Shown piece after piece: positions 1 through 28,502 of a DNA stretch of 51,808 nucleotides; the first letter of the stretch is position 1; each line of letters begins with the position of its first letter. The stretch is from Candidatus Firestoneibacteriota bacterium. Lineage in GTDB: Bacteria; Oederibacteriota; D2-FULL-39-29; JBBTED01. The notes beneath the pieces were generated by a model that searched no databases, was not told the DNA's origin, and worked only from the letters and a program-made list of their open reading frames with translations. The DNA lies in contig JBBTED010000163.1 in the NCBI GenBank assembly GCA_038042445.1, positions 1 to 51,808 on the forward strand, in the 5' to 3' direction. The translations under genes were made by a program, and so were the position numbers.

Positions 1-3000
1 GATACAGGTGGTTCTAATTTATCATACACGCAGTATACAATTTGGACAAATACAGGTCAAATTGGCACACAGTTAAAGACATGGACAAATATTGCAACGA
101 GTATAAATTCAAGTTCTTATAGCACTGATTGGCAAGTGGATTTTTCTGTATTACAGCAGGGAACAAATTATGTATCAGTTTTAGTTTTTGACAATGCCGG
201 AAATTCAGCAACTTTAAGCGATGTATTTTATGTCCGAAAAGATAATACAAATCCGCAAATTACAGATTATCAAACTGGTGATGATTCCTGGAGAAGTACA
301 AATAATGGAACTTATAATATAGATTTTGCAGATACAGGTGGAAGTAATCTTTCTTATGTTCAGACAAAAGTATGCAGTTCACAGGGACAAAGTGGATTAA
401 TACAAGATTGGACTACAGTAGTAAGCGGAATTAATTCTGCTACCTATGATACAAACTGGTCATTGTCTTCATCTGTATGGAATGCGCTTTCGCAGGGAAC
501 AAATTATATTTCAGTTCGTGTTTATGATAATGCAGGAAATTATTCTGAGTTGTCAGATGTGTTTTATGTCCGAAAAGATACTCAAAATCCGGGAATAACA
601 AATAATATTTCCGGTGGTGACAGTGTATGGAGAAAAACTACAGGCACAACTTACAATGTGGATTTTTCTGATGCAGGTTCATTAGTGGATTATTTCCAAT
701 ATACAGTTTATAGCAATACAGGACAAACTGGAAGCACATTAAAGTCGTGGACAAGTGTAGCAACTGGTATTAATAATGCAAGTTATACATACGACTGGAG
801 CGTAGATTTTGCAAGTTTGCAGGAAGGTGCAAATTATGTTTCAGTTCGTGTTTATGATATTGTAGGAAATGGGACAACCCTTGCAGATGCATTTTATATA
901 AACAAAGATACTGTCCTGCCAAGTGCTATTAGCAATTTATCTGCATCATCGGGCATTGAAGGTGAGATAAATCTTGTATGGACTGCTACTGGTGATAATG
1001 CAGGTTCAGGTACAGCTTCAAGCTATACTGTGAAATACAAAACATCTGCTAATTTTGATGGAACACAAGGTGATTTTGATTCAGCAACTACTTATGATAC
1101 TTCGGGTTGGTCTTCTCCGCAAATTGCAGGCTCTGGTGAAAATCGTGTTTTAACAGGTCTTACTCCGAATACACTTTACTATGTTGCAATTGAAGCTATT
1201 GATAAAGCAGGAAATAACGGAGCAGTATCAAATCTAACTGGTAATTCAGCTACATCAGGTGCTGATGTAACTTCACCTGGCCAGATTGCTAATTTAACAG
1301 CTTCAACAGGTGCATATCCAGGTGAAATAGATTTAAGCTGGACAGCACCAGGTGATAATAATTCAACAGGAACAGCGACTTTATATACTGTTAGATATTC
1401 TACATCAGCTGCTATTTCAACAGAAGGTGACTGGACATCTGCAACAACTTATAACCAGAACTGGACACCTTTAATTGCCGAAAGTACAGAGCAAAAAACT
1501 TTAAGTATGCCAAGTCCGAATACTACATATTATTTTGCAATTAGAGCAAAAGACGAAGTTAATAATGAAGGCAGTATATCAAATAGTCCGTCTGCAACTT
1601 CTGCTGCTACAGGTCCTGCTGCTGGAGTTATTGTTTATGGAGAAGGCACATATCAGGAGCCAAGATATATGAACTGGACAGGTTCAGGATGGCAGGGAGA
1701 GCAAACAGGCCCTGATGGTTCTGCTTCTACAGGTGTTATAAACTGGGTTATAACACGTTCGTGTCCTGTTGTCAGAAACGAAAAAATGGCAGGAATATTG
1801 TATTCAGACGGAACTTTATCTGTGCAAAGATGGAATGGTAGCATATGGGCAGTAGAATTTTCTACAACAGGAATAAGTGCTGCAAATAGTGCTTATCGTG
1901 GTTTTGATATTGCTTATGAGCAAAATACAGGCAGATGTATGGTGGTTTATTCTAAAGGAACAACAACAAATGAAATTGCATACAGGGTATGGGATGGAAG
2001 TTCATGGGTAATTGGAGAAACCAATGTAGAACTTGGGACAACTAATATTGTGTATTGGGTAAGAACAGAGCCGAAAAAAGGAAGCAATGAAATTATGATT
2101 GCAACATCAGATGCAAATAATGATATTTATGCAAACAGGTGGACTGGTTCTGCGATTTTAAATGGAAAAACTTTAACTACAGCAACTAATAGTTTAACTA
2201 CTCAGGGTTTTGATATTGCATGGGAAAACACATCAGGGAATTGCATGGTTATATGGAAACAAAGTTTAGTAACTAATTATGATTATTGGAATGGCTTAAA
2301 TTGGTTAGGTTCAGCTGGAGCTGGTCCTAATATTGCAACTTCTGCTGCTGGAAATGGATGGATAAAAATATCTGCAGATACTTCTTCCGGCTCAAATAAA
2401 ATTGGTTTTGCGTCTTTGGACAATAATGTTGACTGGAATTTATGTATTTGGGATGGTGCTATCTGGGGTTCTTTGCCTACAGAAGATGCATCAATGGCAT
2501 CAGTTACATACAGAGGAATAGATATTGCATGGGAAAAAGATTCAGGCAAATGTTTAGCAGTTGGAGGAGATTCTGCTTCAAGGCAAATTAGTTATGTAAC
2601 ATGGACACAAGCAGGTGGATGGAGTTCTGCTAATTTAAGTACAGCTCCAAAAGATTCATATTTGTGGGGAGGTACACTTCGCTGGTTACAATTAACTCCT
2701 GATCCAAATACAAATAAAATGACTTTAGTTGGAATAGACGCAAATGCTGATATTCGTTCACGTAATTGGACAGGTTCTACGTGGTCAGGTGGAACTCAGC
2801 ATGAGCCAGGTGCATCAAATTCTACAAAAGAATGTGAATTTATTGTATTTGACAGACACGATATAACTCCACCTACTATTGCTGATAATCAGACAGGTGA
2901 TGATACCTGGAGAATTTCCAATAACGGAACTTATGATATTGATTTTACAGATTCAGGCGGTTCAAAATTATCTTATATTCAGACAAAAGTTTTTTCAAAC

Positions 3001-6000
3001 ACAGGCCAGACAGGTTCAACTTTGCAGGATTGGACAACTGCTGTTTCATCTATAAATGCGGATTCGTATACTACAAATTGGTCATTGGCTGCTTCTACAT
3101 GGACCGCTTTGCAAGAGGGCACAAATTATGTGTCAGTCAAAATATTTGATGGTGTTGGCAATTCAGATAATTTAACAGATGTATTTTATGTGAAAAAAGA
3201 TTCAGTTTCTCCGGGTATAACAGATAACCAGACAGGTGATGATACCTGGAAAACATCTGCAGGGACAAATTATAATATTGATTTTAGTGATGGGATTTCT
3301 TTGTTAAACAATGTTCAATACGCTGTATATTCCAATACGGTTTTAACAGGTTCTACATTAAAAGACTGGACAAATATTGCAAGTTCTATAAATTCAGATT
3401 CATATACACAGGATTGGGCTGTAGATTTTGCTTCTTGTAATGAAGGCACAAATTATGTTTCAATCCGGGCGTATGATAATGCAGGTAACTGGTCAACATT
3501 ATTAGATTCATTTTATGTCCGAAAAGATACGACTAATCCGGGAGTAACAGATAATCAAACAGGAGATGATACCTGGAAAACATCTGCAGGTACAACTTAC
3601 AATGTAGATTTCACAGATACAGGCGGTTCATTGCTTTCATACACACAATATACTGTCTGGACAGATTCTAATCAGGCAGGAACGCAGCTTAAAGACTGGA
3701 CAAATATAGCCACAAGTATAAATGCTTCAGATTATACAGATAATTGGCAGGTAGACTGGGCAAGTTTGCAACAAGGTACAAATTACGTATCAGTTCGTGC
3801 CTTTGACAATGCAGGAAATTCAGTTGCTTTAGCAGATGTGTTTTATGTGAAAAAAGATACAACTTCTCCTGCAATTACTGATAACCAGTTAGGTGACGAT
3901 ACCTGGAAAACTGGAACTGGCACAACTTATAATATAGATTTTTCTGATAATGAGTCACAACTTTCATACACACAATATACAGTTTATTCTAATACAGGGC
4001 AAACCGGAACTACACTTAAAGACTGGATAAATATTGCAAGTTCTATAAATGCATCTTCATATACAAATGATTGGCAAGTAGATTGGGCGAGTTTGCAACA
4101 AGGCACAAATTACGTATCAGTTCGTGTTTATGACAATGCAGGTTTGTCTGCTACTTTGAATGATGTATTTTATGTGAAAAAAGACACAAATAATCCTGTA
4201 ATAACAGATACACAAACAGGTGATGACACTTGGAAAAATTCTTCAGGGACAACCTACAATATAGATTTTTCAGATTCAGCAGGTGCAAATAATTCGTTAT
4301 TATCTTATGCCCAATACACAGTATATTCAGATACAGGACAAACTGGTAGCACGTTAAAAGACTGGACAAATATTGCATCTGGTATAAATGCATTAGAATA
4401 TACTGATAATTGGCAGATAGATTTTGCTTCAGGACAGCAGGGAACAAATTATGTATCAGTTCGGGTTTATGACAATGCAGGCTTGAGTGCTACTTTAAAT
4501 GATGTATTTTATGTGAAAAAGGATACAAATAATCCGGGAGTTACAGATAATCAGACAGGTGATGATATATGGAGAACTGCTGCAGGAATTTCTTACAATG
4601 TAGATTTTTCAGATACAGGAGGTTCTTTATTATCTTATGCTCAATATACAATTTATGCGAATACAAATCAGACCAGCACACAATTAAAACCATGGACAAA
4701 TATTGCAAGTAGTATAAATGCTTCGGATTGGACAGATAATTGGCAGGTAGATTTTGCTTCTTTACAGGAAGGCACGAATTATGTATCAGCACGTGTTTAT
4801 GACAATTCTGGGAATTGGGCAACATTAACAGATGTTTTTTATATTAAAAAATCTGCAACTGCTCCAACAATAGGTGATAACCAAAATGGTGATGATACGT
4901 GGCGGGCTTCATCAGGAACTTCTTATGATGTAGATTGGACAGATGCAGGTTCGTCTTTGCTTTCGTATGCCCAGTGGACAGTTTATTCTAATACAGGGCA
5001 AACTGGTTCTACTTTAAAAGACTGGACAAATATAGCAAGCTCAATAAATGCGGCACAATACACAGATAACTGGCAGGTTGACTGGGTTTCTTTAAGTGAA
5101 GGCACAAATTATGTAAGTGTCAGGGTTTATAATAATGCAGGAGCTTCGACAAGTTTAATCGACGCATTTTATGTTAAAAAAGATGTATCAAATCCTACAA
5201 TTACAGATTCCCAGACAGGAGATGATACATGGAAGAATGCAAGTGGTACTACTTACAACATAGATTTTGTAGATACAGGCAATTCGTTATTATCTTATGC
5301 ACAGTATGCAGTATATTCAAATACAGGCTTAACTGGTTCAACACTTAAAACGTGGACTGCAATTGTTGCAGGTATAAATGCATCGGATTATACAAATAAT
5401 TGGCAGGTAGATTGGGCAAGTCTACAGGAAGGAACGAATTATGTGTCAGTGAAAGTTTTTGATAATTCCGGAAATTCAGCGAGTTTGTTAGATATGTTTT
5501 ATGTTAAAAAAGATACGAATTTGCCTACAATTACGAATAATCAGGCAGGTACAGATAATACATGGCGGACTTCTTCTGGCACAACTTACAATGTTGATTT
5601 TTATGATACTGCTGGAAGCACGAATTCTTTGCTTTCTTATATCCAGTATGCAGTATATTCAAATACAGGACAAACTGGTTCAACACTTATAGACTGGACA
5701 AATATAGCAAGCAGTATAAATGCTTCGGATTATACTACTAACTGGTCAGTTAATTTTTCATTACTTACCCAAGGAACGAATTATGTGAGTGTTCGTGTTT
5801 ATGACAATTCCGGAAATTCGGCAAATTTAACAGACGCATTTTATATTAAAAAAGATATTACTTCTCCGGGTATAGCTGATGATCAAACAGGTGATGATAC
5901 ATGGAAATCTACATCAGGTACAAGCTATAATATAGATTGGACAGATACGGGGAACTCACAACTTTCCTATGCCCAATATACAGTATACTCAAATACTGCT

Positions 6001-9000
6001 TTAACAGGTTCAACACTTATAGATTGGACAAATATAGCAACAAGTATAAATTCAAATTCATACACGAATGATTGGCAAGTGAATTGGACGAGTTTACAAC
6101 AAGGCACAAATTATGTTTCAGTGCGAGTTTATGATAATGCAGGACTTTCTTCAAATGAAACAGATGCGTTTTATATTAAAAAAGATACATCGGTTCCGGG
6201 AGTTACAGATAATCAATCAGGTGATGATATCTGGAAAAAAGTCAGTGGCACAGCTTATGATGTAGATTTCACAGATACAGGTGGTTCATTACTTTCTTAT
6301 GCCCAATATACAGTATATTCCAATACGGGACAAACTGGAAGTACACTTAAGGTGTGGACAAATATTGCTACAGGTATAAATGCAAATTCATATACTATAG
6401 ATTGGCAAGTTGATTTTTCAAGTTTGCAGGAAGGCACAAATTATGTTTCAGTTAAAACTTATGATGTTGCAGGAAATTCAGTAACACTTATAGATCCATT
6501 TTATGTTAAAAAAGATACTTTAGGACCTGTTGCAACTAATAATATTTCTGGTGGAGATAATACATGGCGAACTGCTTCTGGTACAACTTATGATGTAGAT
6601 TTTACTGACACTAAATCATTGCTTTCTTATGTACAGTATACGGTTTATTCAGGTACAGGTTTAACTGGTTCTACATTAAAGGATTGGACAAATATAGCAA
6701 CAAGTATAAATGCTTTTGATTATACAGATAACTGGCAGGTAGATTTTACGAGTTTACAAGAAGGAACAAATTATGTAACAGTTCGCGCTTATGACAATTT
6801 ATCAAATTTGACAACACTTACAGATGCATTTTATGTGAAAAAGGATACTACTAATCCGGGAATTACAGATAATCAAACAGGTGATGATACCTGGAAAAAA
6901 GTTTCAGGCACAACTTACAACGCAGATTTTTCAGATAATCAGTCTTTGCTTTCTTATGCTCAATATACTATTTGGAGTAATACAGTTCAGACGGGATCAT
7001 TAATTAAGGACTGGACAAATATAGCAACAAGTATAAATGCTGCATCATATACTATTGACTGGCAGGTGGATTTTAATGCTTTGCAGCAGGGAACGAATTA
7101 TGTGTCAGTGAGATGTTATGATAATGTGAGTAAGGTTCTAACACAAAACGATATTTTCTATGTGAAAAAAGATACAAATAATCCGACTATTGAAGATTTG
7201 CAAAGCGGTGATGACACTGTTCGCAGTTCTGGTGGCACAACTTACAATGTTAATTTTTCAGATACATTTGCATCTTCAAATTCTTTATTATCTTATGTCC
7301 AGTATACTGTTTATAATGATACTGGTTTAACAGGTGAGTCAATTATTCCATGGACAAATATAGCAAGTTCAATAAATGCTTCGGATTATACTACAGATTG
7401 GGAAGTAAATTTTGGTGCATTGCAGCAAGGAACAAATAACTATGTTTCAGTTCGTGTCTATGATAATGCGGGTAATTCTGCAACACTTATGGATCCATTT
7501 TATGTGAAAAAAGCAATAGGTCAGCCGACTATCACGGATAATCAATTAGGCGATGATGTATGGAGAAATACGAATGCCGGAATATATAATATAGATTTTA
7601 CTTCTGGAAGTGGTGAAAATCTTTCTTATTTCCAGACAAAAGTTACAAGTTTGCCAAATCAATCTGGAAGCACTTTGCAGGATTGGACTACAGTAGTTTC
7701 TTCTATTAATGCAACAAACTATACAAATAATTGGGCTATATTGGCATCTACATGGAGTGCAGCACAGGAAGGAACAAATTATGTATCTGTTCGCATATAT
7801 GATATTGCGGCAAATACAACTACAACAAATGATGTGTTTTATGTCCGAAAGGATACAACAAATCCTGGAATAACAGATAGCCAGGCAGGTGATGATACAT
7901 GGAAAAATTCTACTGGCACTGCTTATAATGTAGATTTTTCAGATGCAGGTTCGCTTCTTTCCTATGTTCAATATACAATATACTCAAATACTAATTTAAC
8001 AGGTAGCACCTTAAAGGATTGGACAAATATCGCAACGAGTATAAATGTTTCAGATTATACCACAGATTGGCAGGTGGATTTCTCAAGTTTGCAACAGGGA
8101 ACTAATTATGTTTCAGTACGAGTTTATGATACAGCAGGAAATTCTGCTACGTTGAAAGATCCATTTTATGTCAAAAAAGATACAACAAATCCTGGGTTCA
8201 CAGACAATCAAACAGGTGATGATACATGGAGAACTGCATCAGGTACATCTTACGATGTTGACTTCACAGATACAGGAGGAGCTAATTTATCTTATGCTCA
8301 ATACACAATATACTCAAATACTAATTTAACAGGCAACACATTAAAAACCTGGACAAATATAGCAACTGGAATAAATGCTGCATCGTATACAGATGACTGG
8401 CAGGTAGATTGGGCAAGTTTGCAACAAGGAACAAACTATGTATCAGTTCGCACTTATGATAATGCCGGAAATTCTGCAACACTTGTAGATCCATTTTATA
8501 TAAAAAAAGATACTGTTAACCCGGGAATAACAGATAACCAAACAGGAGATGATAACTGGAAAACTGCATCAGGCACGAGTTATAATATAGATTTTTCAGA
8601 TGCAGGTTCTTTGGTTTCCTATTTCCAATATACAGTATATTCCAATACAGGATTTACTGGGAGTACACTTAAGGATTGGACAACAGTAGCAAGTTCAATA
8701 AATAATTCCAATTATACTACCAATTGGCAGGTGGATTTTGCGAGCTTACAGCAAGGCACAAATTATGTGTCAGTTCGCGTTTTTGATAATGTTGGAAATT
8801 CAGAAACACTTGCGGATGCGTTTTATGTTAAGAAAGACACTTCAGCGTCGACTATAACAGATAATCAAACAGGTGATGATACATGGAAAAATGCAAGTGG
8901 CACAAGTTATAATATAGATTTTTCAGACGCAAATTCACTTTTATCTTATGCTCAATACACAATTTATTCAAATACTAATTTAACAGGAACTACACTTAAA

Positions 9001-15000: not shown

Positions 15001-18000
15001 GGTTTAACATCCGGCACTACATATTATTTTGCAATAAAAACAAGAGATAAAGTTCCAAATACAGCAGGTATTTCTAATAACCCAAATTCATTGCCTCAAT
15101 CAGGCAATGTTCATATAAATGAAATATATGCACTTGGTGCTACAGCAGGACAGGATTGGGTAGAATTATATAATGATACAGGAGCAAGTGTTTCTTTAAA
15201 TGGTTGGACACTTGTATATAACACAGGAACTATTTCATCACCAGGTGGCGATACAACAGTATGGACAGGTGGTCCTTCTGATTCTATTGCAAATGGAGCA
15301 AGATTTGTAATTACACCAAATACAAATTTAGATGGAGCTTCGGGTTATCATCTCAAATTAAGAGATGCTATACCTACGCAGGCTGATATTGTTCAGTGGA
15401 TCGCATTATCATCTGGTGCAACTAATATTTCTTTTGCAAGAATTTCTGATGGAAGCAAATATTTTGAAAATGATTCTACTCCAACACAAAATTTATCAAA
15501 TACAGGAACTGATGTTATAAAAATAAATGAAGCGTCTTACCAGTCTGTAAGTTCTGACCAGTTTATTGAATTATATAACACAGATAATATAAATGCAGTT
15601 ACAGTTACTAATTGGATACTCAGAAATAAAAATTCTGTGACTGGGACTTCTCCATACAGAAAACCTTTCCAGTTTACAAGAAAACTTTATCAGAATAGTT
15701 TTACACAAATATATTTCTCAAGCACAGATAATAGTGCAAATGTGTTCGCGTATACTGATTGTTTTGGAGCAGGCGGGTTAGCTACATCAGGAGATTTTGT
15801 TGCTTTGGAAAATTCAAGTGGTCAGGTAATTGATAGGGTTACATGGCAATCCGGTAGTAATTATGTTTACTATGATTATACAGCAACTCTTATATCTTAT
15901 GAAAATCCTGCAATTGCTGATTTGAGTTCGCCAAATACTGTTGGAAGAAATACAGATGGAACTGATACAAATATAGACAATTCGGATTTTATTTCGTATG
16001 CAGAGCCAAATGACGGAATCAGAAATCCGCAAGGCACACTTGCTACAGCTAATACAGTTACAGCACCTGCAAGCCCTATTCCAAAGAAATTCAAAATAGA
16101 ACTACAATTAGGTGAAAATTGTTCAGGTGGAACAACTGATAATATTATATTTATTCGTACAGGAGGAAGTACTGATTCAAAATCTCCGCATATATTCAGA
16201 TTAACAGATTTAGGATTTAGTATTTCATCAACTGCTGTTCAATCTGTTGAGTTTGATGGTGCAACTTTAACTGATATTGATGGATTTTCTTTGGTGAATG
16301 GGGCAGTATACAAAATGTTTTTGAACACTGATACAGGCAATGGAAGAGCTGCAAAGGTGATAAAAACAAGTGTTACTTATGATGCAAGTGTGCATACTTT
16401 AACTGCTAATGACACAGCTAAGGAAAGAGTTGGAAACAGCAAAAAAGTGGATGTACTTAGAATAGATGTTGTAAATAATAGTCCTGCTGGATTAAATAAC
16501 ATTCAGCTTACAATATTAAATGTTAAATGGACAGATGGTTCTGGAACTGCTCTTACAACTGCACAGGCGCAAGGATTATTTGGAAATATATACGTATATC
16601 AGGATAATCCTAATTCTGGTTCTGCTAATATTTATGAATCTGCAATAGATACTACAGCAATTGTTACAATTGCAAATAGTTCAATAAGTCTTGATGGAAG
16701 CGGTATACAGGTAATTACAATATCAGATTTAACAAATGCAACAGTTAATTCTAATTCAACAAAGAGATATTTTGTTGTAGTGGAATTAGCAAGTAATGCA
16801 GATGTGCAAACTCCAAATAATTTCAAGGCATCAATAAAACCTGATACAGATTCTACAATAAGAGATGCTGCTTATTTAGTTAATCAGGTCCCGAATGCTA
16901 CATCTTTGGTTACATCTTCTGCAACAACTGCAATTACAACAACAACTACTACTGAAACAAATTTAGGTGGTCCTACAGAAGCAATAATTGGTTCAGTTGC
17001 CCCAAACTGGGATTCAGGTTCAGGTTCCTATGTTGGCACAGATAATAGCAAACTTTATGCGTTAAATGATAATGGAACCCAGAAATGGACAGCTCCGTTT
17101 GCTACAGTTGGAGCAGTTCGTTCAACTCCTGAAGTTCATGTTGAAGGCAGTGATACTTTTATATATGTTGCAACAGATGGTGGATATTTGTATAAGGTTC
17201 GTGATACAGGAACTGCTGGTAGCACAGATGGAGGTGGCTGGAGTACTAATTTAGGTGCAGTTCTAAGTTCTTCACCTGCAGTATATAATAGTTCTATTTA
17301 TGTTGGATGTAATGATCAAAAATTAAAGAAAATAAATAAAGATACAGGTGGTTTGACATGGGAAACAGATGCTAATGTAAGTGGTCAACTCACTGGAACA
17401 GTATCTGTTGATGAGTGGACAGTTGGTGTAGATTCTGCATGGATTGGTTCTGAAGGAAGTTCAATGTACAGAATTAATACTGCTAATGGTCAGATGTTAA
17501 ACAGTTTTGCAACAGGCAATGCAATAACTGCTTCTCCTTTTGTGGATGCAGGTTATATTACTGCAAGCAATAATTTGTTTATTACTTCCAAAGATGGAAA
17601 AATATATTGTAGAAATTCGTTAAACTTGTCTACAATACCAGCGGGATGGATAAATAGAGGTGGTCAGCAGGATGGAAATTATAATGTAGGAAGTGCTATA
17701 GAATCTTCACCATATATGTCTATTGAAGGCGCAAATAAATATTTATATTTTGGTGCAGATGATGGTAAATTATATAAAATTGATGCTACAACTGGAACAT
17801 TAGTATGGGCATTTCAGACTGAGGGTCCTATAAAATCTTCGCCAATTGTTTATAATAACTGGGTTTATTTCGGAAGTAACGATGGTAATTGTTATTGCAT
17901 TGATACAACAAATGGAACAATTAGAACCCCAGGTTGGCCTGTTTTAACAGGCGCAGCAGTTAAATCAATGCCAGTTGTAAGTGATTGGGTTGATGAATGG

Positions 18001-18057: not shown

Positions 18058-18092
18058 AGGCAGATTGGAAGGCAGACGTCAGACTTAAAAAA

Positions 18093-18115
18093 ATAGGTCA
18101 GGCATCTTGCCTGAC
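18093..18115. repeat. GTAG-type REP-like palindrome (ATAG variant), possible terminator hairpin
   Basis: ATAG-GTCAGGCA-TCT-TGCCTGAC just after the giant gene stop. Confidence 0.7.
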
Positions 18116-18146
18116 ATCAGACGTTGGTGGTTGAAAAGTAGTTTTG

Positions 18147-18214
18147 CCCCATCTCTCTTTGTGGGAGAGGGCGTGCTCTATACCTGAGCATAGCGAATGG
18201 TATAGGGTGAGAGG
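18147..18214. repeat. CCCTCTCCC..GGGAGAGGG..GGGTGAG-type palindrome with a nested CTATACC-TGAGCATAGCGAAT-GGTATAG hairpin
   Basis: The outer element resembles 36137-36164; the inner stem is 18178-18184 paired with 18199-18205. Confidence 0.6.
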
Positions 18215-18230
18215 TTAGTAAAATAGGAAA

Positions 18231-20909
18231 ATGAAAAGTTTAAAACGAAAAATGAAAAACTATAAATTGAATGTAGTCGCAGGCTTTAGCCTGCGGTATT
18301 ATCTTTTACCATTTTTCCGCAGGCTAAAGCCTGCGACTACTATTTTAATATTCCTATTTTTAACTTCAACACTTTCCGCTGCGGATTGGAGAACATTCAA
18401 AAAAAATCCTGCACGTGTTGGGGAAGCAATAGAGCAGGCGCATCCACCTCTAACTTTGAAATGGCAGTTTACTGCTCAAGGCGCATTCCTTTCTTCGCCT
18501 ATAGTATATAAAGGTAGAGTCTACATAGGTAGTGAGGGAGGAGATGTTTTTGCTTTTGATGCATATACAGGAGCTATGGTATGGCAATATTCAACAGATG
18601 GTCCGGTTAGAGGGACACCATCTGCGGCGAATGGTATTATTTATGTATCTTGTCAGGATGGATATTTGTATGCATTTGATGCTAATACTGGAGACATTAA
18701 ATGGAAATATTTAACAGGAAGCAAAGATTGTTCTTCGCCTGTTGTTGAGAATGTTAAATTGTATGGGGCAAGTGGTTTTCCACAACAAGCTGTTTATTGT
18801 CTCAATGCAAGTACAGGAGCTGAGTTATGGAAAGTATCTTTAGATAAATATATTTATTCTTCACCTGTATATAAAGATGGTATTGTTTATGTTGGAGCTA
18901 ATAATGGAAAATTTTATGCATTAGATGCTAATACTGGAAGTATTAAGTGGTCATTTACCACAGAAGGTAGTATATATTTTTCTACAATGGCACTTGCAAA
19001 TGGAGTTGTTTATGGGGCACCTGGAAGTGATGATAGAAAAGTTTACGCACTAAATGCAAATGCTACAGGTGGTTTAAAAACTGGATGGAGTTTCACTGAC
19101 CTTGGAACAGCTCCAACAATTGTTTCTTCAATTGCAATATCAAACGGATTTTTATATATAGCAAGTGGAACAACGCCTTTTACTCTTTATAAATTAGATG
19201 CAGGCACAGGTGTAAAAATGGCAGAACGGGAAATTGGTATAAATTCCAATTTAGGATTTGCTTCTTCCCCTGCAATTTCAAATGGTGTTATATATATTGG
19301 AGCAGCAAATTCTATTTTTTATGCACTTGATGCAGGGACACTTGATATTCTTGGACAAATTACACTTGATGCACCTATTCTTTCAACAGCATCAATTTCC
19401 AATGGGTGGGTATATATTGGCACAGGTGATTTAGGTGATGGAACAATTTATGGTTTTGAATGTGCAAAAGCAGCAGCAATTACAAGTCCTGATGATGAAA
19501 CAGGCTCGGAAAATATTGTAGGTACAGTATTGGATATAAAAGGAATCGTTAAAAATCCTGATATAAAAAATTATAAACTCGAGTATAAATCAGAAGGTTT
19601 AAATGAATGGAATCTTTTTGCCACAGGAACAGGTGAGATAAATAATGCTATTCTTGGAACTTTATCTACATATAATATTCCACAAGGTAATGTTGATATA
19701 AAACTTACAGTAGAAGAATTAAGCGGAAGAATTCTGAATAATTTTGCTATGTTTCGTATTTATTTGGCTCAGACTTTTGCTATGATTCGCAAATGGGTGA
19801 CTGCAATATTAGGGGCAGTGATTACTGCTTATGATGGAACTGAGCTTACAATTGAGCCAGGTACTTTAAAACAAGATACTTATGTTACTATAAAAACCCC
19901 TATAGAGTATCCTGAAATGCTTGTGTCTACGAAATTCAAGCCAAGTCCTGTTGTCCGAGAATTTTTGATAGATATTGAAGATAAAACTTTTAATAAACCT
20001 GTTACTATTAAGATTCCATTTAAAGATGCAGATTTTGATATTAAAAAAGTTAAAAAAGAGAATTTAAAAATGTTCTATTATAATGAGAAGGATAAAAATT
20101 GGGAATTTATTTCGGATTCTTATGCTATAGCATCTCAAAATCTTGTTGTAGGCAAGGTAACGCATTTTTCAATGTTTGGAGTTTTTGGAGTTGCAAGTTC
20201 TTATGCCCAAGGTATAATTACTGTTGCTTTAGGTGGTACTTTAATGGCTGCAGATGGAACAACAGCTATATTTGAGCCTGGAGCTCTAACTGATGATGAT
20301 ACAGTAACTATTCAGGAACCACTTTCTTATTCAAATGATGGTATATCCAAATTTTATAAAAGCACAACTGTTACAAGAGAATTTTTAGTAACAAAACCAA
20401 GAAATTCCAAATTTAACAAACAAGTTACAATAAAATTGCCTTATACAGATGAAGAAATTCAGGGAATGAAAGAGAAAAATTTAAGAATATGCTGGTGGAA
20501 TTCTGAAAAATCTAAATGGCAGATGCTAAATTCATCTAAGCCGTCAATTGAAGAAAAAAAAGTTGTTGGAAAAGTTACACATTTTTCAATTTACAGGATT
20601 TTTGAATATTTGGGTGGTGAAGATCTTATAAATAAAGATACAGTTTATACATATCCAAATCCTGCTTTGGGAGACACTTTGGTTTTTAAATGTTATTTAG
20701 GTGATGATGCAGATATAACCATAGATGTATTTAATATAGCCGGAGAAAAGATAGCCATTTTGAACAATACAGGTATAGCAGGTGTAACTTTGGAAACCAC
20801 ATGGGATATAAACAATATCGCAAGCGGAGTATACATATATAAAATAGAAGCAACAGCTAAAAGCGGAGCAAAAAAATATGTCATTAAAAAACTCGCAATC
20901 GTCCATTGA
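18231..20909 (+). CDS. Secreted protein: PQQ/BamB-like beta-propeller, Ig-like linker, two ZU5-like domains ending in THFS, and a T9SS type-A-like C-terminal sorting domain
   Basis: Signal h-region ILIFLFLTSTLSA; W.TF..NPAR.G propeller start and repeated SSP..VY.G..G..YA.DA.TG...W blades; two copies of DGT....EPG.L..D..VTI...F.K.VTIK.P...W...GKVTHFS; C-terminal YPNP...WD...ASGVYIYKI...KKLAIVH. Confidence 0.85.
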   Translation: MKSLKRKMKNYKLNVVAGFSLRYYLLPFFRRLKPATTILIFLFLTSTLSAADWRTFKKNPARVGEAIEQAHPPLTLKWQFTAQGAFLSSPIVYKGRVYIGSEGGDVFAFDAYTGAMVWQYSTDGPVRGTPSAANGIIYVSCQDGYLYAFDANTGDIKWKYLTGSKDCSSPVVENVKLYGASGFPQQAVYCLNASTGAELWKVSLDKYIYSSPVYKDGIVYVGANNGKFYALDANTGSIKWSFTTEGSIYFSTMALANGVVYGAPGSDDRKVYALNANATGGLKTGWSFTDLGTAPTIVSSIAISNGFLYIASGTTPFTLYKLDAGTGVKMAEREIGINSNLGFASSPAISNGVIYIGAANSIFYALDAGTLDILGQITLDAPILSTASISNGWVYIGTGDLGDGTIYGFECAKAAAITSPDDETGSENIVGTVLDIKGIVKNPDIKNYKLEYKSEGLNEWNLFATGTGEINNAILGTLSTYNIPQGNVDIKLTVEELSGRILNNFAMFRIYLAQTFAMIRKWVTAILGAVITAYDGTELTIEPGTLKQDTYVTIKTPIEYPEMLVSTKFKPSPVVREFLIDIEDKTFNKPVTIKIPFKDADFDIKKVKKENLKMFYYNEKDKNWEFISDSYAIASQNLVVGKVTHFSMFGVFGVASSYAQGIITVALGGTLMAADGTTAIFEPGALTDDDTVTIQEPLSYSNDGISKFYKSTTVTREFLVTKPRNSKFNKQVTIKLPYTDEEIQGMKEKNLRICWWNSEKSKWQMLNSSKPSIEEKKVVGKVTHFSIYRIFEYLGGEDLINKDTVYTYPNPALGDTLVFKCYLGDDADITIDVFNIAGEKIAILNNTGIAGVTLETTWDINNIASGVYIYKIEATAKSGAKKYVIKKLAIVH
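18273..18340. repeat. GTAG-type REP doublet (inverted pair), in-frame in the signal peptide of the 892-aa gene
   Basis: GTAGTCGCAGGCTTTAGCCTGCG at 18273-18295 and its exact reverse complement at 18318-18340; translated as VVAGFSLR...RRLKPAT. Confidence 0.95.
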
Positions 20910-21423
20910 TAAATATGTAAAAATTCCCACTTTTGTAAAGGGGGATAAAGGGGGATTTGTAGCCGCAGGCTTTAGCCTGCGAAAGCATAAATCCATAGGT
21001 ATTTTTTTGATAACTATTTTTCTATTTGGCTGTGCTCCCCAAAAAGATATTATTAAACAAGATGTAGTTGCCGATTTATCGGCAATCAAAGAACCAGTAT
21101 ACATCACTGCAAGAGGAGTTGGTTCTCCATCTTTTGATTTACAAAAGATTCAGGAGAGAAGAATGTCTGCTAATAGGTCGTCTATATCTGCTGCAGTGTA
21201 TCAATTGATAAGTTTTCTCAAAGGATTGAGGTTAGAGAATGGTCAGATAGTAGGTAGTGCAATGGATGCAGATACAAAGTTTAAAGAAGTAGTAGAAAAT
21301 GCTGTTAAGGAATTATACGAAGTAGTAACACAGGATTTTACTACAACTGAAACATGTAGCAGTACTATTAGATTAGACAAAAACAAACTTGAAGATAAAC
21401 TAAAGGTAAAATTCAATGAATGA
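20878..21423 (+). CDS. Lipoprotein, LPP20-like (start codon uncertain)
   Basis: Lipobox IFLFG-C (Cys at 21031) after a hydrophobic stretch; ITARGVG.P...A.R.....A..QL...LKG pattern reminiscent of LPP20. Confidence 0.7.
   Translation: MSLKNSQSSIDKYVKIPTFVKGDKGGFVAAGFSLRKHKSIGIFLITIFLFGCAPQKDIIKQDVVADLSAIKEPVYITARGVGSPSFDLQKIQERRMSANRSSISAAVYQLISFLKGLRLENGQIVGSAMDADTKFKEVVENAVKELYEVVTQDFTTTETCSSTIRLDKNKLEDKLKVKFNE
20925..20981. repeat. Adjacent CCCCCTTT-type and GTAG-type palindromes, in-frame in the lipoprotein N-terminus
   Basis: TCCCACTTTTGTAAAGGGGGATAAAGGGGGATTT (20925-20958), then GTAGCCGCAGGCTTTAGCCTGCG (20959-20981). Confidence 0.9.
21064..21085. repeat. GTAG-type palindrome variant, in-frame (VVADLSA)
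   Basis: GTAG-TTGCCGAT-TT-ATCGGCAA; near-identical copy at 23341. Confidence 0.85.
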
Positions 21424-23041
21424 GTTATTTGTCATTCCCGCGAAAGCGGGAATCCAGTATTTTAGGGATAAAATTATGAATTTAAATTGTAGTGATCGAC
21501 AGTTGTCATTGCGAGTAGTTGTAGAGGTAGTCGCAGGCTTTAGCCTGCGGTCTTTCCTTCGCAAGCTAAAGCTTGCGGCTACAATTATGATATTTATATT
21601 TGCTATTTTTAACACCTGCTATTCCTCAGAAATTCATCCGAATGCAGGCACTACAAGTGCGTCTTTTCTTAAAATAGGCATAGGTGCAAGACCTGTAGGA
21701 ATGGGTGAAGCTTTTGTTGCAGTTGCAGATGATGCTAATTCAGTATACTGGAATCCTGCAGGTTTGGCTCGTGTTAAAAAAATGGAATTTACTGCAATGC
21801 ATAACGAATGGTTTCAGGATATAAGATATGAATTTATTGCTTATGCTCATCCTTTTGAAAATGGTTCAACTGGAGCTTTCCATTTAGGAAGTTTGTATTT
21901 AAAAGGTTTGGAAAGGCGAAGCTGGTTAACAGAAGATCCTGAAGATGATCCTAGTTTAGCAGAAGATTTATTTGGCGCAGCAGATTATGAAGGGGCAATT
22001 TCTTATAGTGGTTGGTTAACAGAAAATCTAATGGGAGGAGCAAATTTAAAATTTATTTATGAAACTATAGATAAATACAATGCTTCTGGTTTTGCATTTG
22101 ATTTGGGTTTAATTTATAAAATAGCAGGAGATAATTTAACTTCAGGACTTGTTCTGCAAAATTTAGGGCCAAAATTAACATTTATCCAAAGAGGGTATAT
22201 GTTGCCTTTAACAGCAAAATTAGGATTTGCATGGAAAATTCCTCTTCTTAATTTGTTATGGGCTATAGATTTGAAACAACCAATAGATAATTATCTTCAT
22301 ATAAATTCAGGTTTGGAATACTGGTTTATGAATACAATTGCATTAAGAGTTGGATATAGATACAAATGGTTTGGAAATGACTTAGGAACATTATCAGGGT
22401 TGACATCCGGTATGGGTTTTCAGGTGAATAATTTATTTGGTACGTTAGATATGGAATTAGATTATGCTTTTGTTCCCTATGGAGATTTAGGTTTCACGCA
22501 TAGGGTTTCATTAACAGCAAGATTTGGAACTTCTGTTGAATTACCAGAGTCTGAACCAGTTAAAGGAAAAACTGCTGATGAATTAAAACAGGAAATAATA
22601 TCAGAAGTAGATTCAAAAATAGCTGTAGCTGCAGAGCTTGCTCTGCAAAATAGTGATAATATTTCTAATAATTTAAATAAAATAAATACAGACATAACTA
22701 CAATTTCAGATAATATGAAAGTAATAATGGAAAAACTTAACACTCTTGATGAAAAACAGAAGGCTCAAGTTCTTAAAGATGAAGCAAAACAGGAAATAAA
22801 TACAGAAAAGGATGAAGCGAATAAGTTGCCTGAAAATATTAATATGCCATCAGACAATATAAAGCAAGAAACAAAATATGAAACATACGAAGTGCAACAA
22901 GGTGATAACCTGCATACTATTGCAAAAAAATTCTATGGCACTTCGGCAAAGTGGAATATTGTATATGAAGCAAATAAAGATACAATGAAAACACCAGATA
23001 ACATTAAAATCGGTAATAAACTAAAAATCCCCAAAGAATGA
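21416..23041 (+). CDS. PorV/PorQ-family outer-membrane beta-barrel fused to a coiled coil and a C-terminal LysM domain (true start may be downstream, e.g. 21476)
   Basis: FLKIGIGARPVGMGEAFVAVADDANSVYWNPAGLA N-terminal motif; DYAFVPYGDLGFTHRVSL barrel end; LysM YEVQQGDNLHTIAKKFYG...NIKIGNKLKIP. Confidence 0.88.
   Translation: MNELFVIPAKAGIQYFRDKIMNLNCSDRQLSLRVVVEVVAGFSLRSFLRKLKLAATIMIFIFAIFNTCYSSEIHPNAGTTSASFLKIGIGARPVGMGEAFVAVADDANSVYWNPAGLARVKKMEFTAMHNEWFQDIRYEFIAYAHPFENGSTGAFHLGSLYLKGLERRSWLTEDPEDDPSLAEDLFGAADYEGAISYSGWLTENLMGGANLKFIYETIDKYNASGFAFDLGLIYKIAGDNLTSGLVLQNLGPKLTFIQRGYMLPLTAKLGFAWKIPLLNLLWAIDLKQPIDNYLHINSGLEYWFMNTIALRVGYRYKWFGNDLGTLSGLTSGMGFQVNNLFGTLDMELDYAFVPYGDLGFTHRVSLTARFGTSVELPESEPVKGKTADELKQEIISEVDSKIAVAAELALQNSDNISNNLNKINTDITTISDNMKVIMEKLNTLDEKQKAQVLKDEAKQEINTEKDEANKLPENINMPSDNIKQETKYETYEVQQGDNLHTIAKKFYGTSAKWNIVYEANKDTMKTPDNIKIGNKLKIPKE
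21430..21457. repeat. TGTCAT-type palindrome with ATTCCC-N8-GGGAAT core
   Basis: TGTCATTCCCGCGAAAGCGGGAATCCAG; relatives at 42659-42733 and a degenerate one at 36072. Confidence 0.88.
21527..21582. repeat. GTAG-type REP doublet in-frame before the PorV-like signal h-region
   Basis: GTAGTCGCAGGCTTTAGCCTGCG...CGCAAGCTAAAGCTTGCGGCTAC. Confidence 0.93.
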
Positions 23042-25563
23042 TACGACCAACAACTATTTTTGCTTTTATTGTAATTTTCACTTCCTTTTTGTTTTATCTT
23101 TTTACTATATCACCTACTGTTGTAGTAGGTGATAGTGGTGAGTTAATTACAGCAGTCCATTCTTTGGGTATAGCACATCCACCTGGCTATCCTGTTTTTT
23201 GTATTTTAGGAAAAATATTCACTTTTTTGCCAGTTGGAACTATTGCCTTTCGCGTTAATCTAATGAGTGCATTTTTTAGTTCAATATCTTTACTGTTTAT
23301 ATATTTGATTTTGTTGAAAATATGGGGGCACAGTAAAGTTGTAGTTGCCGATTTATCGGTAAAAAATGAATCTAATGTTAATCCTGTATTTCTTTCTGCT
23401 TCTATGGCTCTTTGTTTTGCATTCACAAACACCTTTTGGTCGCAAGCATTAATGTCAGAAGTTTATGCCTTAAATACATTTTTTTTATCCGTTTTAATTT
23501 ATATTTTAGTTCTCTGGTATGAAAAGCTGCAAAACCAGATTTCCGACAATAAATTGTTATATTTATTTTCTTTTATATATGGAGTAAGTCTTGCGAATCA
23601 TAATACTATGGTTCTATTTGGGCCTATTGCTTATGGCTGGATAATTTTGTGTACACCTGATATTTTAAAGAAGAAAAACGTGTTAATATTATTGTTGGCA
23701 CTAATTTTTCTTGGATTAACAACTTATTTTTATATGCCTATACGTGCTTTAACTTCACCTGCAATAAATTGGGGAAATCCTGATACTTTAACACGTTTCA
23801 TTGATCAAATTACACGAAGGCAATATGGAGATCTTGCTAAAGATCCAAGGGCATTGGCGTTGTTTGGAAGACAGATATTGGAATATTTAAAACTATTAAT
23901 CAAGCAAATTTCTCCATTCCTGACTATTTTTTCTGTAATAGGAATATGGTACTTTTACAAAATTAACAGAAAATATTTTGTTCTAACACTTGCACTTTTT
24001 TTAGGTTTAAGTTTGGGTTTTATACTTTTGCTCAATTTTCAGCTGACTACTGAGACTATTCTTTCAGTGGCAGAGTTTTTTACAGCATCTTATGTTATTG
24101 CTATTATATGGTTATGTTTTGGATTCAAATTTATTCTTGAAAGGCTATATCCCAAAAAACAACTTTTTTATATGACTTATGGAATTATTTTTTTAATCCC
24201 AATTCTTTCACTTAAATTGAATTACTTTGAAAATGATCTAAGCAGGAAATATATAGCTTATGACTATAATATAAGTGTTATGAAATCAATGCCTAAAAAT
24301 TCAATGCTCCTTGGTATGGGCGATAATATAATATTTCCTTTATCATATCTTCAAAAAGTTGAAAAAAACAGGCAAGATTTAAAAATTTATGATGATATAG
24401 GTTGTGTATTTGAAAATATTTATGGTGAGGATTTTTTGAAATTTCCAGAAGATTATAAGAAGCAAAAAAGAACTGAAATACAGAAACTTTTGATAAAAAA
24501 TTCACAAAATCCGGTATATTGTGTTTTAGGAAGTAATTTGTCTAATATCACAGGAATATCTTTGACTCCGGAAGGTTTAGTTTGTAAAACACTCCCAAAA
24601 AACACAATAAATTCAGACAAAGATGATATTGTCAATATGGATTTTCAATCAGGGAAAGGAAAGTTGATTGCTATACCTGTTAATCAATCTGTTAACCGTA
24701 AGAAAAATGTAGACACTAAATTTGATTGGTCAAAAATCTATATACGTGGGATAGATGATGATACAGTCTATAAGGATTATTTGAATAGAGATTTAATTGC
24801 CCAATACCATTTTTTTTATGCAGAGCATTTGTTTTTTAAAAATGATATAAAAAATGCAAAAGAGGAATACAACAAATCATTTAAAGTGGCACAGGATATA
24901 GAGTGGATAAAAAATAATATTATGGTTACATTAAATGTCAGGGGTTTGTCAGATGAAGTGGAAAAAATTGCAACTGAATCAGTAAAAATTGATTCTAATA
25001 ATGCCCAGATATATGTTAATTTAGGAATATCTTTTTATAATAAAGGTGTTTTGGATAAAGCAATTGAATCATATAAAAAAGCAATTGAAATAGATTCTAA
25101 ATGTGTTGAAGCACATTCAAATTTAGGTGTGGTTTATGAAAAGATGGGGTTAACAAATGATGCAATCAATGAATACAAAATTACAATTGAACTTGAGTCT
25201 AACCATATAATTGCACGTCATAACCTTGGGGTTTTATATAAAAAAGAAGGTAAATATATAGAAGCAATTAATGAATTTGAAAAGGTGATAAAGATTAATC
25301 CTGATTTAACTGAAGCATATATATCGCTGGGAATTTCGTATGGAAAATTAAACCAGTATGAAAATGCTATAAAGGTATTTAAAAAAATAATAGAAAAAGA
25401 TGATTCAAATGCAGAGGCACATTATAACCTTGGAGTTGCATATTACAAAATAGGAGTTCTAAAAGATGCCAAGCAAGAGTGGGAAAAAACTTTAAGTATA
25501 AATCCAAATTATCCCTTAGTAAAAGAACATTTAGCTCACATTTTCGGCAACACTAAAAATTAA
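23038..25563 (+). CDS. DUF2723/TMEM260-like multi-pass GT-C glycosyltransferase with C-terminal TPR repeats
   Basis: PTV..GDSGEL......GIAHPPGYP motif, WSQA...EVY.L, many TM helices, and about six TPRs (A..NLG..Y...G....AI..Y.K.I). ATGA overlap with the upstream gene. Confidence 0.9.
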   Translation: MIRPTTIFAFIVIFTSFLFYLFTISPTVVVGDSGELITAVHSLGIAHPPGYPVFCILGKIFTFLPVGTIAFRVNLMSAFFSSISLLFIYLILLKIWGHSKVVVADLSVKNESNVNPVFLSASMALCFAFTNTFWSQALMSEVYALNTFFLSVLIYILVLWYEKLQNQISDNKLLYLFSFIYGVSLANHNTMVLFGPIAYGWIILCTPDILKKKNVLILLLALIFLGLTTYFYMPIRALTSPAINWGNPDTLTRFIDQITRRQYGDLAKDPRALALFGRQILEYLKLLIKQISPFLTIFSVIGIWYFYKINRKYFVLTLALFLGLSLGFILLLNFQLTTETILSVAEFFTASYVIAIIWLCFGFKFILERLYPKKQLFYMTYGIIFLIPILSLKLNYFENDLSRKYIAYDYNISVMKSMPKNSMLLGMGDNIIFPLSYLQKVEKNRQDLKIYDDIGCVFENIYGEDFLKFPEDYKKQKRTEIQKLLIKNSQNPVYCVLGSNLSNITGISLTPEGLVCKTLPKNTINSDKDDIVNMDFQSGKGKLIAIPVNQSVNRKKNVDTKFDWSKIYIRGIDDDTVYKDYLNRDLIAQYHFFYAEHLFFKNDIKNAKEEYNKSFKVAQDIEWIKNNIMVTLNVRGLSDEVEKIATESVKIDSNNAQIYVNLGISFYNKGVLDKAIESYKKAIEIDSKCVEAHSNLGVVYEKMGLTNDAINEYKITIELESNHIIARHNLGVLYKKEGKYIEAINEFEKVIKINPDLTEAYISLGISYGKLNQYENAIKVFKKIIEKDDSNAEAHYNLGVAYYKIGVLKDAKQEWEKTLSINPNYPLVKEHLAHIFGNTKN
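23341..23362. repeat. GTAG-type palindrome variant in-frame in an inter-helix loop (VVADLSV)
   Basis: GTAGTTGCCGATTTATCGGTAA, 21/22 identical to 21064-21085. Confidence 0.85.
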
Positions 25564-25568
25564 ACAAA

Positions 25569-25615
25569 AATTCCCCCCCTACCCCCCTTTAGTAAAGGGG
25601 GATTAAGGGGGAATT
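25569..25615. repeat. CCCCCTTT-N3-AAAGGGGG-type palindrome, intergenic
   Basis: AATTCCCCCCCTACCCCCCTTT-AGT-AAAGGGGGATTAAGGGGGAATT. Confidence 0.9.
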
Positions 25616-25629
25616 AAAAAGAGTTTCAG

Positions 25630-26790: not shown

Positions 26791-26891
26791 GGGGTATTTT
26801 TAAAAATATGGTACCCCCCCATTGCGTAGAGACTCATTGCAATGCGTTTCTACTTGTATGCCCACTTTATTAAAGGGGGTAGGGGGGAATT
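26764..26891. repeat. Cluster of palindromes: TCCCTTCGCC-TA-GGCGGAGGGA element containing the stop codon, a GTAG-type element (26826-26853) and a CCCCCTTT-type element (26861-26891)
   Basis: GTAGAGACTCATTGCAATGCGTTTCTAC is a near-perfect palindrome; CCCACTTTATTAAAGGGGGTAGGGGGGAATT matches 25569 and 28503. Confidence 0.85.
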
Positions 26892-26894
26892 GTT

Positions 26895-26922
26895 TTGACA
26901 AACCAACAAAATTCTGTATAAT
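26895..26922 (+). promoter_or_regulatory. Sigma70-type promoter
   Basis: TTGACA (26895-26900), 16-bp spacer, TATAAT (26917-26922); the ATG follows 10 nt later with no SD. Confidence 0.8.
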
Positions 26923-26932
26923 TATATAAACA

Positions 26933-27307: not shown

Positions 27308-27327
27308 CGGTTGGATTACTATCCAAC
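27304..27327. repeat. GTAG-type palindrome whose TAG is the regulator's stop codon
   Basis: GTAGCG-GTTGGAT-TACT-ATCCAAC; same GTAGCGGT start as 34100. Confidence 0.7.
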
Positions 27328-28500: not shown

Positions 28501-28502
28501 AA

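Follow-up and report, generated by a model that had tools for sequence, protein, structure and literature searches.

The window analyzed here is the whole of contig JBBTED010000163.1 (51,808 nucleotides; GenBank assembly GCA_038042445.1, catalogued as Candidatus Firestoneibacteriota), and the subject of this report is a run of genes at positions 1-25563 that may form a unit for the display of a giant protein at the cell surface, built from parts resembling type IX secretion system (T9SS) components. The contig is C163 of a genome (G000) of 2.81 Mb in 181 contigs that is 90% complete and has a G+C content of 31.9%. A first-pass annotation of this DNA had described five co-oriented genes, the last four of them overlapping. 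The open reading frame (ORF) map confirmed that all five lie on the + strand. They encode the C-terminal 6018 residues of a giant protein made up of repeats (1..18057, open at the 5′-end), an 892-residue protein that is referred to here as the adaptor (18231..20909), a 181-residue lipoprotein with the lipobox LFGC (20878..21423), a 541-residue PorV/PorQ-family barrel with a LysM domain (21416..23041), and an 841-residue DUF2723/TMEM260-like GT-C membrane glycosyltransferase with C-terminal TPR repeats (23038..25563). The longest ORFs of the last four genes overlap in succession, by 32, 8, and 4 nt; since the palindrome CGCAGGCTTTAGCCTGCG sits in the 5′-ends of the second to fourth ORFs, the extent of the first two overlaps varies with the start codon chosen. 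As the annotation had stated, the window holds no sprA or porKLMN gene, as judged by scanning 26 ORFs with Pfam and 13 with NCBIfam.

The portion of the giant protein encoded in the window is composed of 33 repeat units of about 110 residues, two copies of an FN3 pair with a β region that matches no family, two lamin-tail (LTD) domains, and, at the C-terminus, a PQQ-type propeller recognized by Pfam and present in the orthologues. The terminal propeller module accounts for the last 470 residues (16645..18054, + strand). Ser and Thr together make up 24.5% of the sequence. The earlier description of a protein of more than 6000 residues built of Ig repeats was correct in size; its Ig-like character was found only as summed weak Pfam matches (Big_13 and similar), with no single stretch passing. 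No C-terminal sorting domain (CTD) or other sorting signal was seen at the C-terminus of the giant in the domain scans. When the terminal propeller was searched against a library of 1.8 billion representatives, 16 single-stretch full-length matches were found among the best 150 listed, and all 16 are at the C-terminus of their protein.

The giant is probably the product of one gene of ~9,400 codons that was broken by the assembler within the repeats, with its N-terminal 3336 residues on contig C36. This is suggested because a 3336-residue ORF on C36 has a signal peptide, carries 23 repeat units of the kind found in the giant, and runs off the end of the contig, and because the open frame of the orthologue in the related genome G001 (9349 residues) almost equals the summed length here (3336 + 6018 = 9354). 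A signal peptide is also found in the orthologue from G002. Upstream of the probable start of the giant (C36:13080-24178) there are genes for a SurA-like Rotamase_2 peptidyl-prolyl isomerase (PPIase), a DUF2723-TPR protein, a B12 radical-SAM protein, a SPASM radical-SAM protein, and an S24-like peptidase. The DUF2723-TPR gene, the second of its kind around this locus, lies ~5 kb from that start.

The adaptor begins with a signal peptide, which is followed by a PQQ-type propeller (residues 76-407), a linker Ig-like region, two ZU5-fold domains in tandem, and a type-A T9SS CTD. It had been called a propeller/ZU5-like protein, and both parts of that name were borne out: the propeller by Pfam, and the ZU5 fold by an AlphaFold2 (AF2) model compared with known structures. 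The model, covering residues 470-892, was built from an alignment of 39 homologues and has a predicted local distance difference test score (pLDDT) of 87. The ZU5 pair (residues 524-652 and 664-791; 19800..20603, + strand) found as its best Foldseek match the ZU5-ZU5-UPA-DD tandem of ankyrin-B (4d8o, E 3.6e-12). Using VIA-align, the ZU5-ANK structure 3f59 was aligned with a Z score of 13.4 and a root-mean-square deviation (rmsd) of 2.5 over 126 residues, and the tandem 3ud2 with a Z score of 13.2. The GAIN domain of CD97 (9mqr) gave a Z score of 11.6 over 128 residues, lower than the ZU5 match.

The CTD (residues 808-892; 20652..20906, + strand) passed both type-A models over residues 808-886, with 31.7 bits for TIGR04183 (cut-off 23) and 35.6 bits for PF18962, Por_Secre_tail (cut-off 27). 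The tail reads YPNPA...GVYIYK...KKLAIVH, as had been noted, and it does model as an Ig-like CTD: the model was aligned to the CTD of PorU (6za2) with a Z score of 11.8 and an rmsd of 2.1 over 90 residues at 22% identity, and to that of PorZ (5m11) with a Z score of 10.6. The Lys in KKLAIVH (K417 of the modeled slice) is kept in at least 90% of the 39 sequences. According to the available part of PMC10994853, a near-invariant Lys close to the C-terminus is a feature of type-A CTDs.

Each ZU5 domain of the adaptor ends in the sequence T-H-F-S. The H-F-S motifs (residues 645-647, 20163..20171; residues 784-786, 20580..20588; + strand) fall, by the AF2 model, in the turn that joins the final two strands of the first and second ZU5 domains, respectively, and the second is 21 residues before the CTD. 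The pre-CTD site is H-F-S or H-F-T in 26 of the 39 aligned homologues. A hidden Markov model (HMM) of both ZU5 domains, searched against the same genome, found 13 ORFs, 12 of which are among the 26 CTD proteins described below; in these 12 proteins the ZU5-like domain ends 12-18 residues before the start of the CTD, and 7 keep H-[FL]-[ST]. A few further cargo tails were seen by eye to have the same type of pattern.

Two precedents for such motifs were found. In the available part of PMC3210808, PIDD is reported to have two ZU5 domains and to cleave itself at an HF/S site behind each of them, with the fragments remaining together. The adaptor resembles the ZU5 domains of PIDD (and the FIIND of NLRP1 and CARD8) in its β-sandwich fold (Z score of 13.4 to ZU5), in the H-F-S within the turn before the last strand, and in having two tandem copies. 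In the accessible text of a preprint (bioRxiv 10.64898/2026.05.12.724683), GAIN-like domains of microbes, named "MAIN", are cleaved between F and S of an HFS motif and are placed between a passenger and a surface anchor. The ZU5 pair of the adaptor is likewise between a passenger and a surface anchor, with an HX(S/T) motif, and its fold also aligns to the GAIN domain of CD97, though less well than to ZU5 (Z score of 11.6). The differences are that the anchor of the adaptor is a T9SS-type CTD, that the motif is degenerate in about one-third of the homologues, and that cleavage is here predicted from motif and fold. The terms T9SS, "type IX", and ZU5 do not occur in the accessible text of the MAIN preprint, and nothing relevant on ZU5 combined with T9SS was found in the literature searched; the only related item, judged from its listing, is on Gram-positive toxins. 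The H-F-S motif in a ZU5 domain before a T9SS-type CTD appears to be new here, and the predicted self-cleavage would replace the PorU sortase.

The barrel that follows was described in the first-pass annotation as PorV-like with a LysM domain, and this description holds. Residues 78-370 were scored at 192.3 bits by the PorV/PorQ family model NF033709 (cut-off 90), and the barrel aligns to the solved PorV structure 6h3i_F (E 5e-7). It falls under the equivalog cut-offs for PorV (67.5 bits; cut-off 250), PorQ (98.7 bits; cut-off 220), and PorV2 (95.7 bits; cut-off 325). The barrel domain is followed by a low-complexity/coiled linker and a C-terminal LysM domain (residues 491-539; nt 22886-23032), which was scored at 28.9 bits by PF01476 (cut-off 20.9) and matches the LysM domain of Kbp (7pvc, E 6e-8). 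A scan with the barrel against genome contigs returned distant matches only, at 36-37% identity, from metagenome-assembled genomes (MAGs) of Ignavibacteria and Zixibacteria; the Omnitrophota matches were to LysM only.

The conservation of the locus was determined in the 13 genomes of the class that are in the collection and in a wider set of 40 relatives. At a threshold of E <= 1e-35, orthologues of the adaptor were found in 4 of the 12 other class genomes (G001, G002, G003, and G006), with 47-53% identity over the ZU5 and CTD regions. In all four loci the order is a large protein, then the propeller-ZU5-CTD protein, then a barrel. All four of the large proteins end in the propeller of the giant (E 1e-76 to 1e-149) and are without a CTD. 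Across the 40 relatives, the terminal propeller (E <= 1e-45) is found in exactly the four genomes that have the adaptor, always adjacent to it and directly upstream. In a tree of 33 barrels, the barrel of the window and the four barrels beside the adaptor orthologues form one clade with an SH-like approximate likelihood ratio test (SH-aLRT) support of 99, apart from the other barrels of this genome in the tree.

As judged from gene order and homology, the conserved core is three genes, a CTD-less giant, a propeller-ZU5-CTD adaptor, and an orthologous barrel, and this trio occurs in five genomes. The earlier proposal of a five-gene cassette is narrowed accordingly: the giant, the adaptor, and the barrel are together in all four loci, whereas DUF2723 is present in one of the four, and neither the lipoprotein nor the LysM tail occurs outside the present locus. 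A dedicated cassette survives as a cargo/receptor pair, which is kept together in each of the four relatives with the adaptor and whose barrels form a single clade, and not as a five-gene unit. The lipoprotein, the LysM tail, and the DUF2723 gene are local additions. We considered whether a single gene had been broken into giant and adaptor and rejected this, as a signal peptide precedes the adaptor too and the same split is found in all four orthologous loci. A second propeller of the type that ends the giant (E 1e-98) is in a 980-residue open frame on another contig of G006 (G006:C85:20815-21960). In G001 (C18, ORF 8760-10472, − strand) a four-helix-bundle frame of the "23S rRNA intervening sequence" type separates the adaptor gene from the barrel gene, with whose ORF it merges; the corresponding domain (PF05635) is also carried by several database homologues of the adaptor.

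The pairing of a tagged protein with a barrel is not special to this locus, which is one of 18 cargo-barrel neighborhoods in the genome. The NCBIfam PorV/PorQ model gave 26 matches in the genome, with 12 loci over the cut-off. Using HMMs iterated on the ORFs of the genome itself, we found 28 ORFs for barrels and another 26 that end in a CTD. Fifteen CTD genes are followed by a barrel on the same strand within 770 nt, and three more have a barrel directly upstream, so that 18 of the 26 CTD genes adjoin a barrel. The identities among the CTDs were found to be correlated with those among their partner barrels (Mantel Spearman r 0.54, reached by 0 of 2000 permutations), and 9 of 18 nearest neighbors agree. 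This correlation indicates co-inheritance, short of proof for specific recognition. The barrels seem to collect periplasmic accessory modules. C-terminal additions resembling CsgG/LpoB/TolB_N are found on the barrels of contigs C170, C42, and C155 (E 1e-7 to 4e-14), TPR repeats on those of C112 and C142, and a weak LysM on that of C18. On contig C67 (28786-31755), directly after a ZU5-CTD cargo gene, a PorV-family barrel is fused to TIG and caspase-like Peptidase_C14 domains in a protein of 989 residues, and this fused cysteine peptidase could stand in for the PorU sortase.

The genome was found to be Omnitrophota-like by its RpoC sequence: of the best 120 matches, 12 carry an organism name, and every one of these is from Omnitrophota (65-67% identity). 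The lineage is thus no ordinary Bacteroidota, a point on which the first-pass annotation had depended. The named homologues of the adaptor are MAGs of Elusimicrobiota, and by these matches the cassette family is shared with that group. The two assignments could reflect an old family common to both phyla or one that has moved between them.

It had been suggested that the lineage lacks the canonical T9SS core, and this is correct in part. On another contig (C87), an ORF of 1745 residues gave five piecewise matches to the SprA model TIGR04189 (109.7, 75.7, 37.3, 25.7, and 19.2 bits), each below the cut-off of 200. Neither GldL nor GldM was matched in the 90%-complete genome. The same two models were silent in all genomes tried, namely one MAG each of Ignavibacteria and Zixibacteria, two relatives, and 16 genomes from the phylum to which the Ignavibacteria MAG belongs, and hence had no positive control. 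Absence of the motor is not claimed because the GldL and GldM models matched in no genome tried. A full GldK was not found in G000, where only partial sulfatase-type matches under the cut-off were obtained, nor was the body of PorU; the PorU model NF033707 matched only at its CTD end (model positions 954-1095), in 21 cargo tails.

The available literature places the T9SS in the Bacteroidota or the FCB group, and nothing relevant on a T9SS or C-terminal sorting domain in Elusimicrobia was found in those parts of the searched literature that were accessible. The components described here resemble the type-A route of Bacteroidota in the Ig-like CTD, the near-invariant Lys, the PorV-family 14-strand-type barrel, and the SprA-like giant barrel gene. 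They differ in number and setting. One PorV serves all type-A cargo in F. johnsoniae, as given in the available part of PMC10994853, whereas there are 28 barrels here, most of them beside a cargo gene; the lineage is Omnitrophota-like; and neither the PorU body nor GldL or GldM was detected here, in searches that had no positive control. A likeness in organization is offered by the type-B systems PG1035-PorP-PorE and SprB-SprF, which, in the accessible part of PMC9143113, have a dedicated barrel and the peptidoglycan-binding PorE and do not need PorU. The likeness, as far as that text goes, is in one dedicated barrel per cargo encoded adjacently, the involvement of a giant adhesin (SprB), and a wall-binding periplasmic element on the barrel complex. 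In contrast to the type-B route, the tag here is type-A, the barrel is of the PorV/PorQ family instead of PorP, the LysM domain is fused to the barrel and PorE is separate, and the giant is without a CTD.

We propose that the three core genes form a surface-display unit, in which a tagless giant adhesin is held by a propeller-ZU5-CTD anchor or export adaptor with its own PorV-family barrel. The mechanism is drawn from genes, folds, motifs, and synteny, and in our estimation the chances that it is right are about even. The CTD would take the adaptor through the SprA-like translocon, and the cognate barrel would keep it at the surface, as type-B cargo is kept on PorP/SprF. In this genome the LysM tail of the barrel, expected to be in the periplasm, would fasten the barrel to peptidoglycan, with assistance from the LPP20-fold lipoprotein. 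Each ZU5 domain would cut itself between F and S, with the passenger staying on the CTD stub non-covalently. This self-cleavage would stand in for the PorU sortase step and would allow release under force. The terminal propeller of the giant would bind the propeller of the adaptor, so that the tagless giant is carried or tethered. An adaptor role toward the CTD-less giant is likely, given the co-occurrence and adjacency of the two genes in 4 of the 40 relatives. The weakest and least supported step is the last, in which the DUF2723-TPR enzyme would O-glycosylate the Ser/Thr-rich repeats of the giant in the periplasm.

Evidence for the identity of the two accessory proteins differs in strength. 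The DUF2723-TPR assignment of the 841-residue protein was upheld: PF11028 (TMEM260-like/DUF2723) was scored at 146.8 bits (cut-off 24.2), TPR_1, TPR_2, and TPR_11 are over their cut-offs, and a GDSGE sequence, a candidate site for the first-loop catalytic Asp (Asp52 in TMEM260), was seen by eye at residues 31-35. In the available part of PMC10214176, TMEM260 O-mannosylates β-strands in IPT domains, with a proposed role for its TPR part in substrate selection. The protein described here shares with TMEM260 (GT117) the PF11028 domain and a GT-C membrane part with TPR repeats behind it, on the non-cytoplasmic side, and it has a nearby candidate substrate of Ser/Thr-rich β-sandwich repeats in the giant. 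It differs in that 16 paralogues are found in this genome, that DUF2723 is in one of four orthologous loci, and that enzyme and substrate are here a candidate pair from genes alone. The 16 DUF2723/TMEM260-like TPR paralogues are scattered in the genome. Four of them are on contig C21, two just downstream of a barrel and CTD gene pair.

The lipoprotein had been called LPP20-like. It does have a lipobox (LFGC), but the LPP20 part is weak. No match to LPP20 (PF02169) or any other Pfam family was found for it at E <= 0.1. It appears to be a diverged paralogue of a conserved lipoprotein family, of which a copy on contig C47 matches LPP20 with E 0.014 (16.3 bits; cut-off 25.9); the lipoprotein homologues of the relatives (16 of 40 genomes) resemble the C47 copy and are located elsewhere. 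The structures closest to the AF2 model of the lipoprotein (pLDDT 80.6) are 9hmf_A, a chain of a flagellar scaffold from Campylobacter (E 9e-4), and H. pylori Lpp20 (5ok8), the latter with E 4.4e-3, a probability of 1.00, and template modeling (TM) scores of 0.43-0.47. On this model, the label is plausible but weak. The idea that the lipoprotein is a separate form of a domain fused to barrels elsewhere was unsupported at the sequence level.

A number of observations weigh against the proposed display unit or against parts of it. The pre-CTD motif is degenerate in 13 of the 39 homologues (RFS, SFS, SLS, SLG, KLG, and similar) and in 5 of the 12 ZU5-CTD proteins of this genome, and therefore cleavage cannot be universal. 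Pfam ZU5 (PF00791) was scored at 18.3 bits on the adaptor, below its cut-off of 21. All four adaptor orthologues are in one family (f2), so that the kin are few and not independent, and at E <= 1e-35 the other six genomes of the class are without the adaptor. The correlation between CTDs and barrels is no proof of recognition because duplication of whole cassettes gives the same pattern. For the accessory genes, the lipoprotein and the LysM tail are in none of the four orthologous loci, and when the profile of the lipoprotein family was compared with that of the CsgG/LpoB-like domain ending the C42 barrel, the probability was 0.15, showing no similarity. DUF2723 follows the barrel in G001 only, just 2 of the 16 paralogue sites adjoin a CTD/barrel pair, and the DUF2723 gene may belong to the neighboring polysaccharide locus. 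Finally, two preprints link Omnitrophota giant proteins of the Archaeovorin and Dockerin types to type II/IV-like secretion loci.

The most serious alternative is that the genes are neighbors and not partners. The adaptor would then be ordinary tagged cargo, such as a surface lectin or enzyme; the giant would be exported and anchored by another route, such as a type II/IV-like one; and the linkage would arise from co-regulation with the exopolysaccharide locus. Consistent with this, 18 cargo-barrel neighborhoods exist without any giant, other giants carry a ZU5-CTD or CTD of their own (5146 residues on C112; ORFs of 3726-4259 residues in G001), and the cassette abuts a polysaccharide locus both here and in G001. 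The published Omnitrophota giants are flanked by genes resembling those of type II secretion systems and type IV pili, and one preprint reports a Rotamase_2 PPIase near the giant genes; the SurA-like Rotamase_2 gene upstream on C36 fits that pattern. The giant described here resembles them in its Omnitrophota-like genome, its length as a Sec-exported repeat protein of >9,000 residues, and the upstream Rotamase_2 PPIase gene; it differs in that the published giants are linked with type II/IV-like secretion genes. The terms T9SS, "type IX", and PorV do not occur in the accessible text of the two preprints. What speaks against mere proximity is the terminal propeller of the giant, which is conserved and strictly C-terminal in the 16 of 16 single-stretch full-length matches among the best 150 listed, is present in exactly the 4 of 40 relatives with the adaptor, and is always directly upstream of it, with no other sorting signal seen at the C-terminus of the giant. 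We regard the explanation by proximity as possible but on the unlikely side.

It is improbable, to a greater degree, that the barrels are uptake channels. The PorV family is FadL-like, and each pair would then consist of a surface binding or degrading protein and its importer, as in a polysaccharide-utilization pair. Weak Toluene_X/FadL and TraF_2 Pfam matches on several barrels and the many different passenger domains on the paired cargo are compatible with this explanation. However, the PorV/PorQ model scores far better (192 bits for the barrel of the window, and 12 loci over the cut-off), the barrel of the window aligns to PorV (6h3i_F, E 5e-7), the partner always carries a T9SS CTD, and CTD and barrel diverge together. 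An ordinary T9SS cargo operon of a Bacteroidota, to which the type-A CTD and PorV-family matches over curated cut-offs might have pointed, is refuted by taxonomy and copy number: the 12 named RpoC matches among the best 120 are all Omnitrophota and the named adaptor homologues Elusimicrobiota, and there are 28 barrels and not one shared PorV. Also against it, the PorV, PorQ, and PorV2 equivalogs fall under their cut-offs, GldL and GldM gave no match (without a positive control), GldK is partial and under its cut-off, and the PorU model found CTD ends only.

Returning to the surface-display unit, its interest is in the arrangement of the parts. In descriptions of the T9SS as a system of Bacteroidota (or the FCB group), its requirements are a PorV carrier common to the cargo, a motor driven by protons, and a sortase; here the tag, the barrel, and the SprA-like pore are arranged differently, with one barrel per cargo and a pairing that is stable across families. 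New here are the trio of tagless giant, adaptor, and barrel, the ZU5 modules with H-F-S, and the lipoprotein, LysM, and DUF2723 as local additions. If the proposal is correct, the task of the sortase falls to self-cleaving ZU5/GAIN-type modules, and the tagged adaptor bears on the question, raised by the papers on giant genes of Omnitrophota, of how giants leave the cell and stay attached. A broader generalization can be offered only tentatively: bacteria of the Omnitrophota/Elusimicrobiota type might possess a stripped-down type IX-like system without PorU and perhaps without GldLM, in which each cargo has its own PorV-type dock and a self-cleaving ZU5/GAIN tether, and in which tagless adhesins of ~9,400 residues piggy-back on an adaptor. 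We consider this doubtful at present.

Downstream of the five genes, an NTP_transf_5 protein is encoded at 25630..26790 (+ strand), and this gene is the downstream neighbor in three of the four orthologous loci. It is probably the first gene of the adjoining exopolysaccharide locus. Positions 26933-36055 (+ strand) hold polysaccharide genes with a response regulator and an HD-domain protein as well as a PIG-L deacetylase, a WecA-like transferase, an AMIN-domain Wza-like exporter, and a Wzc-like kinase, together with an XrtA/PEP-CTERM-type ATPase-like gene (229 bits, under the cut-off of 324.5). Positions 36159-51424 (− strand) hold glycosyl- and methyltransferases, a B12 radical-SAM gene, a flippase, and a UDP-sugar dehydrogenase. 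The cassette in G001 is likewise followed by such a polysaccharide locus. A scan for promoters and terminators in 17900-27400 gave no excess of promoter-like sites (40, compared with 47.5 in shuffled sequences). A perfect sigma-70 consensus (TTGACA, 16 nt, TATAAT) is found at 26895-26922, just upstream of the response-regulator gene, and by its position it likely marks an operon boundary after the NTP_transf_5 gene.

The palindrome CGCAGGCTTTAGCCTGCG resembles a repetitive extragenic palindrome (REP) and was found 17 times over both strands, with 0.02 expected. It lies within the 5′-ends of the adaptor (18279/18319), lipoprotein (20965), and barrel (21533/21560) ORFs, and the pair in the adaptor ORF forms REP-like hairpins at 18276..18335. 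The sites in the window are at 18279-18335, 20965-20981, 21533-21576, 28785-28842, 36106-36122, and 40414-40456. In three exported proteins the palindrome is read in frame within the n-region of the signal peptide, as AGFSLR or, from the inverted copy, as RRLKPA or RKLKLA.

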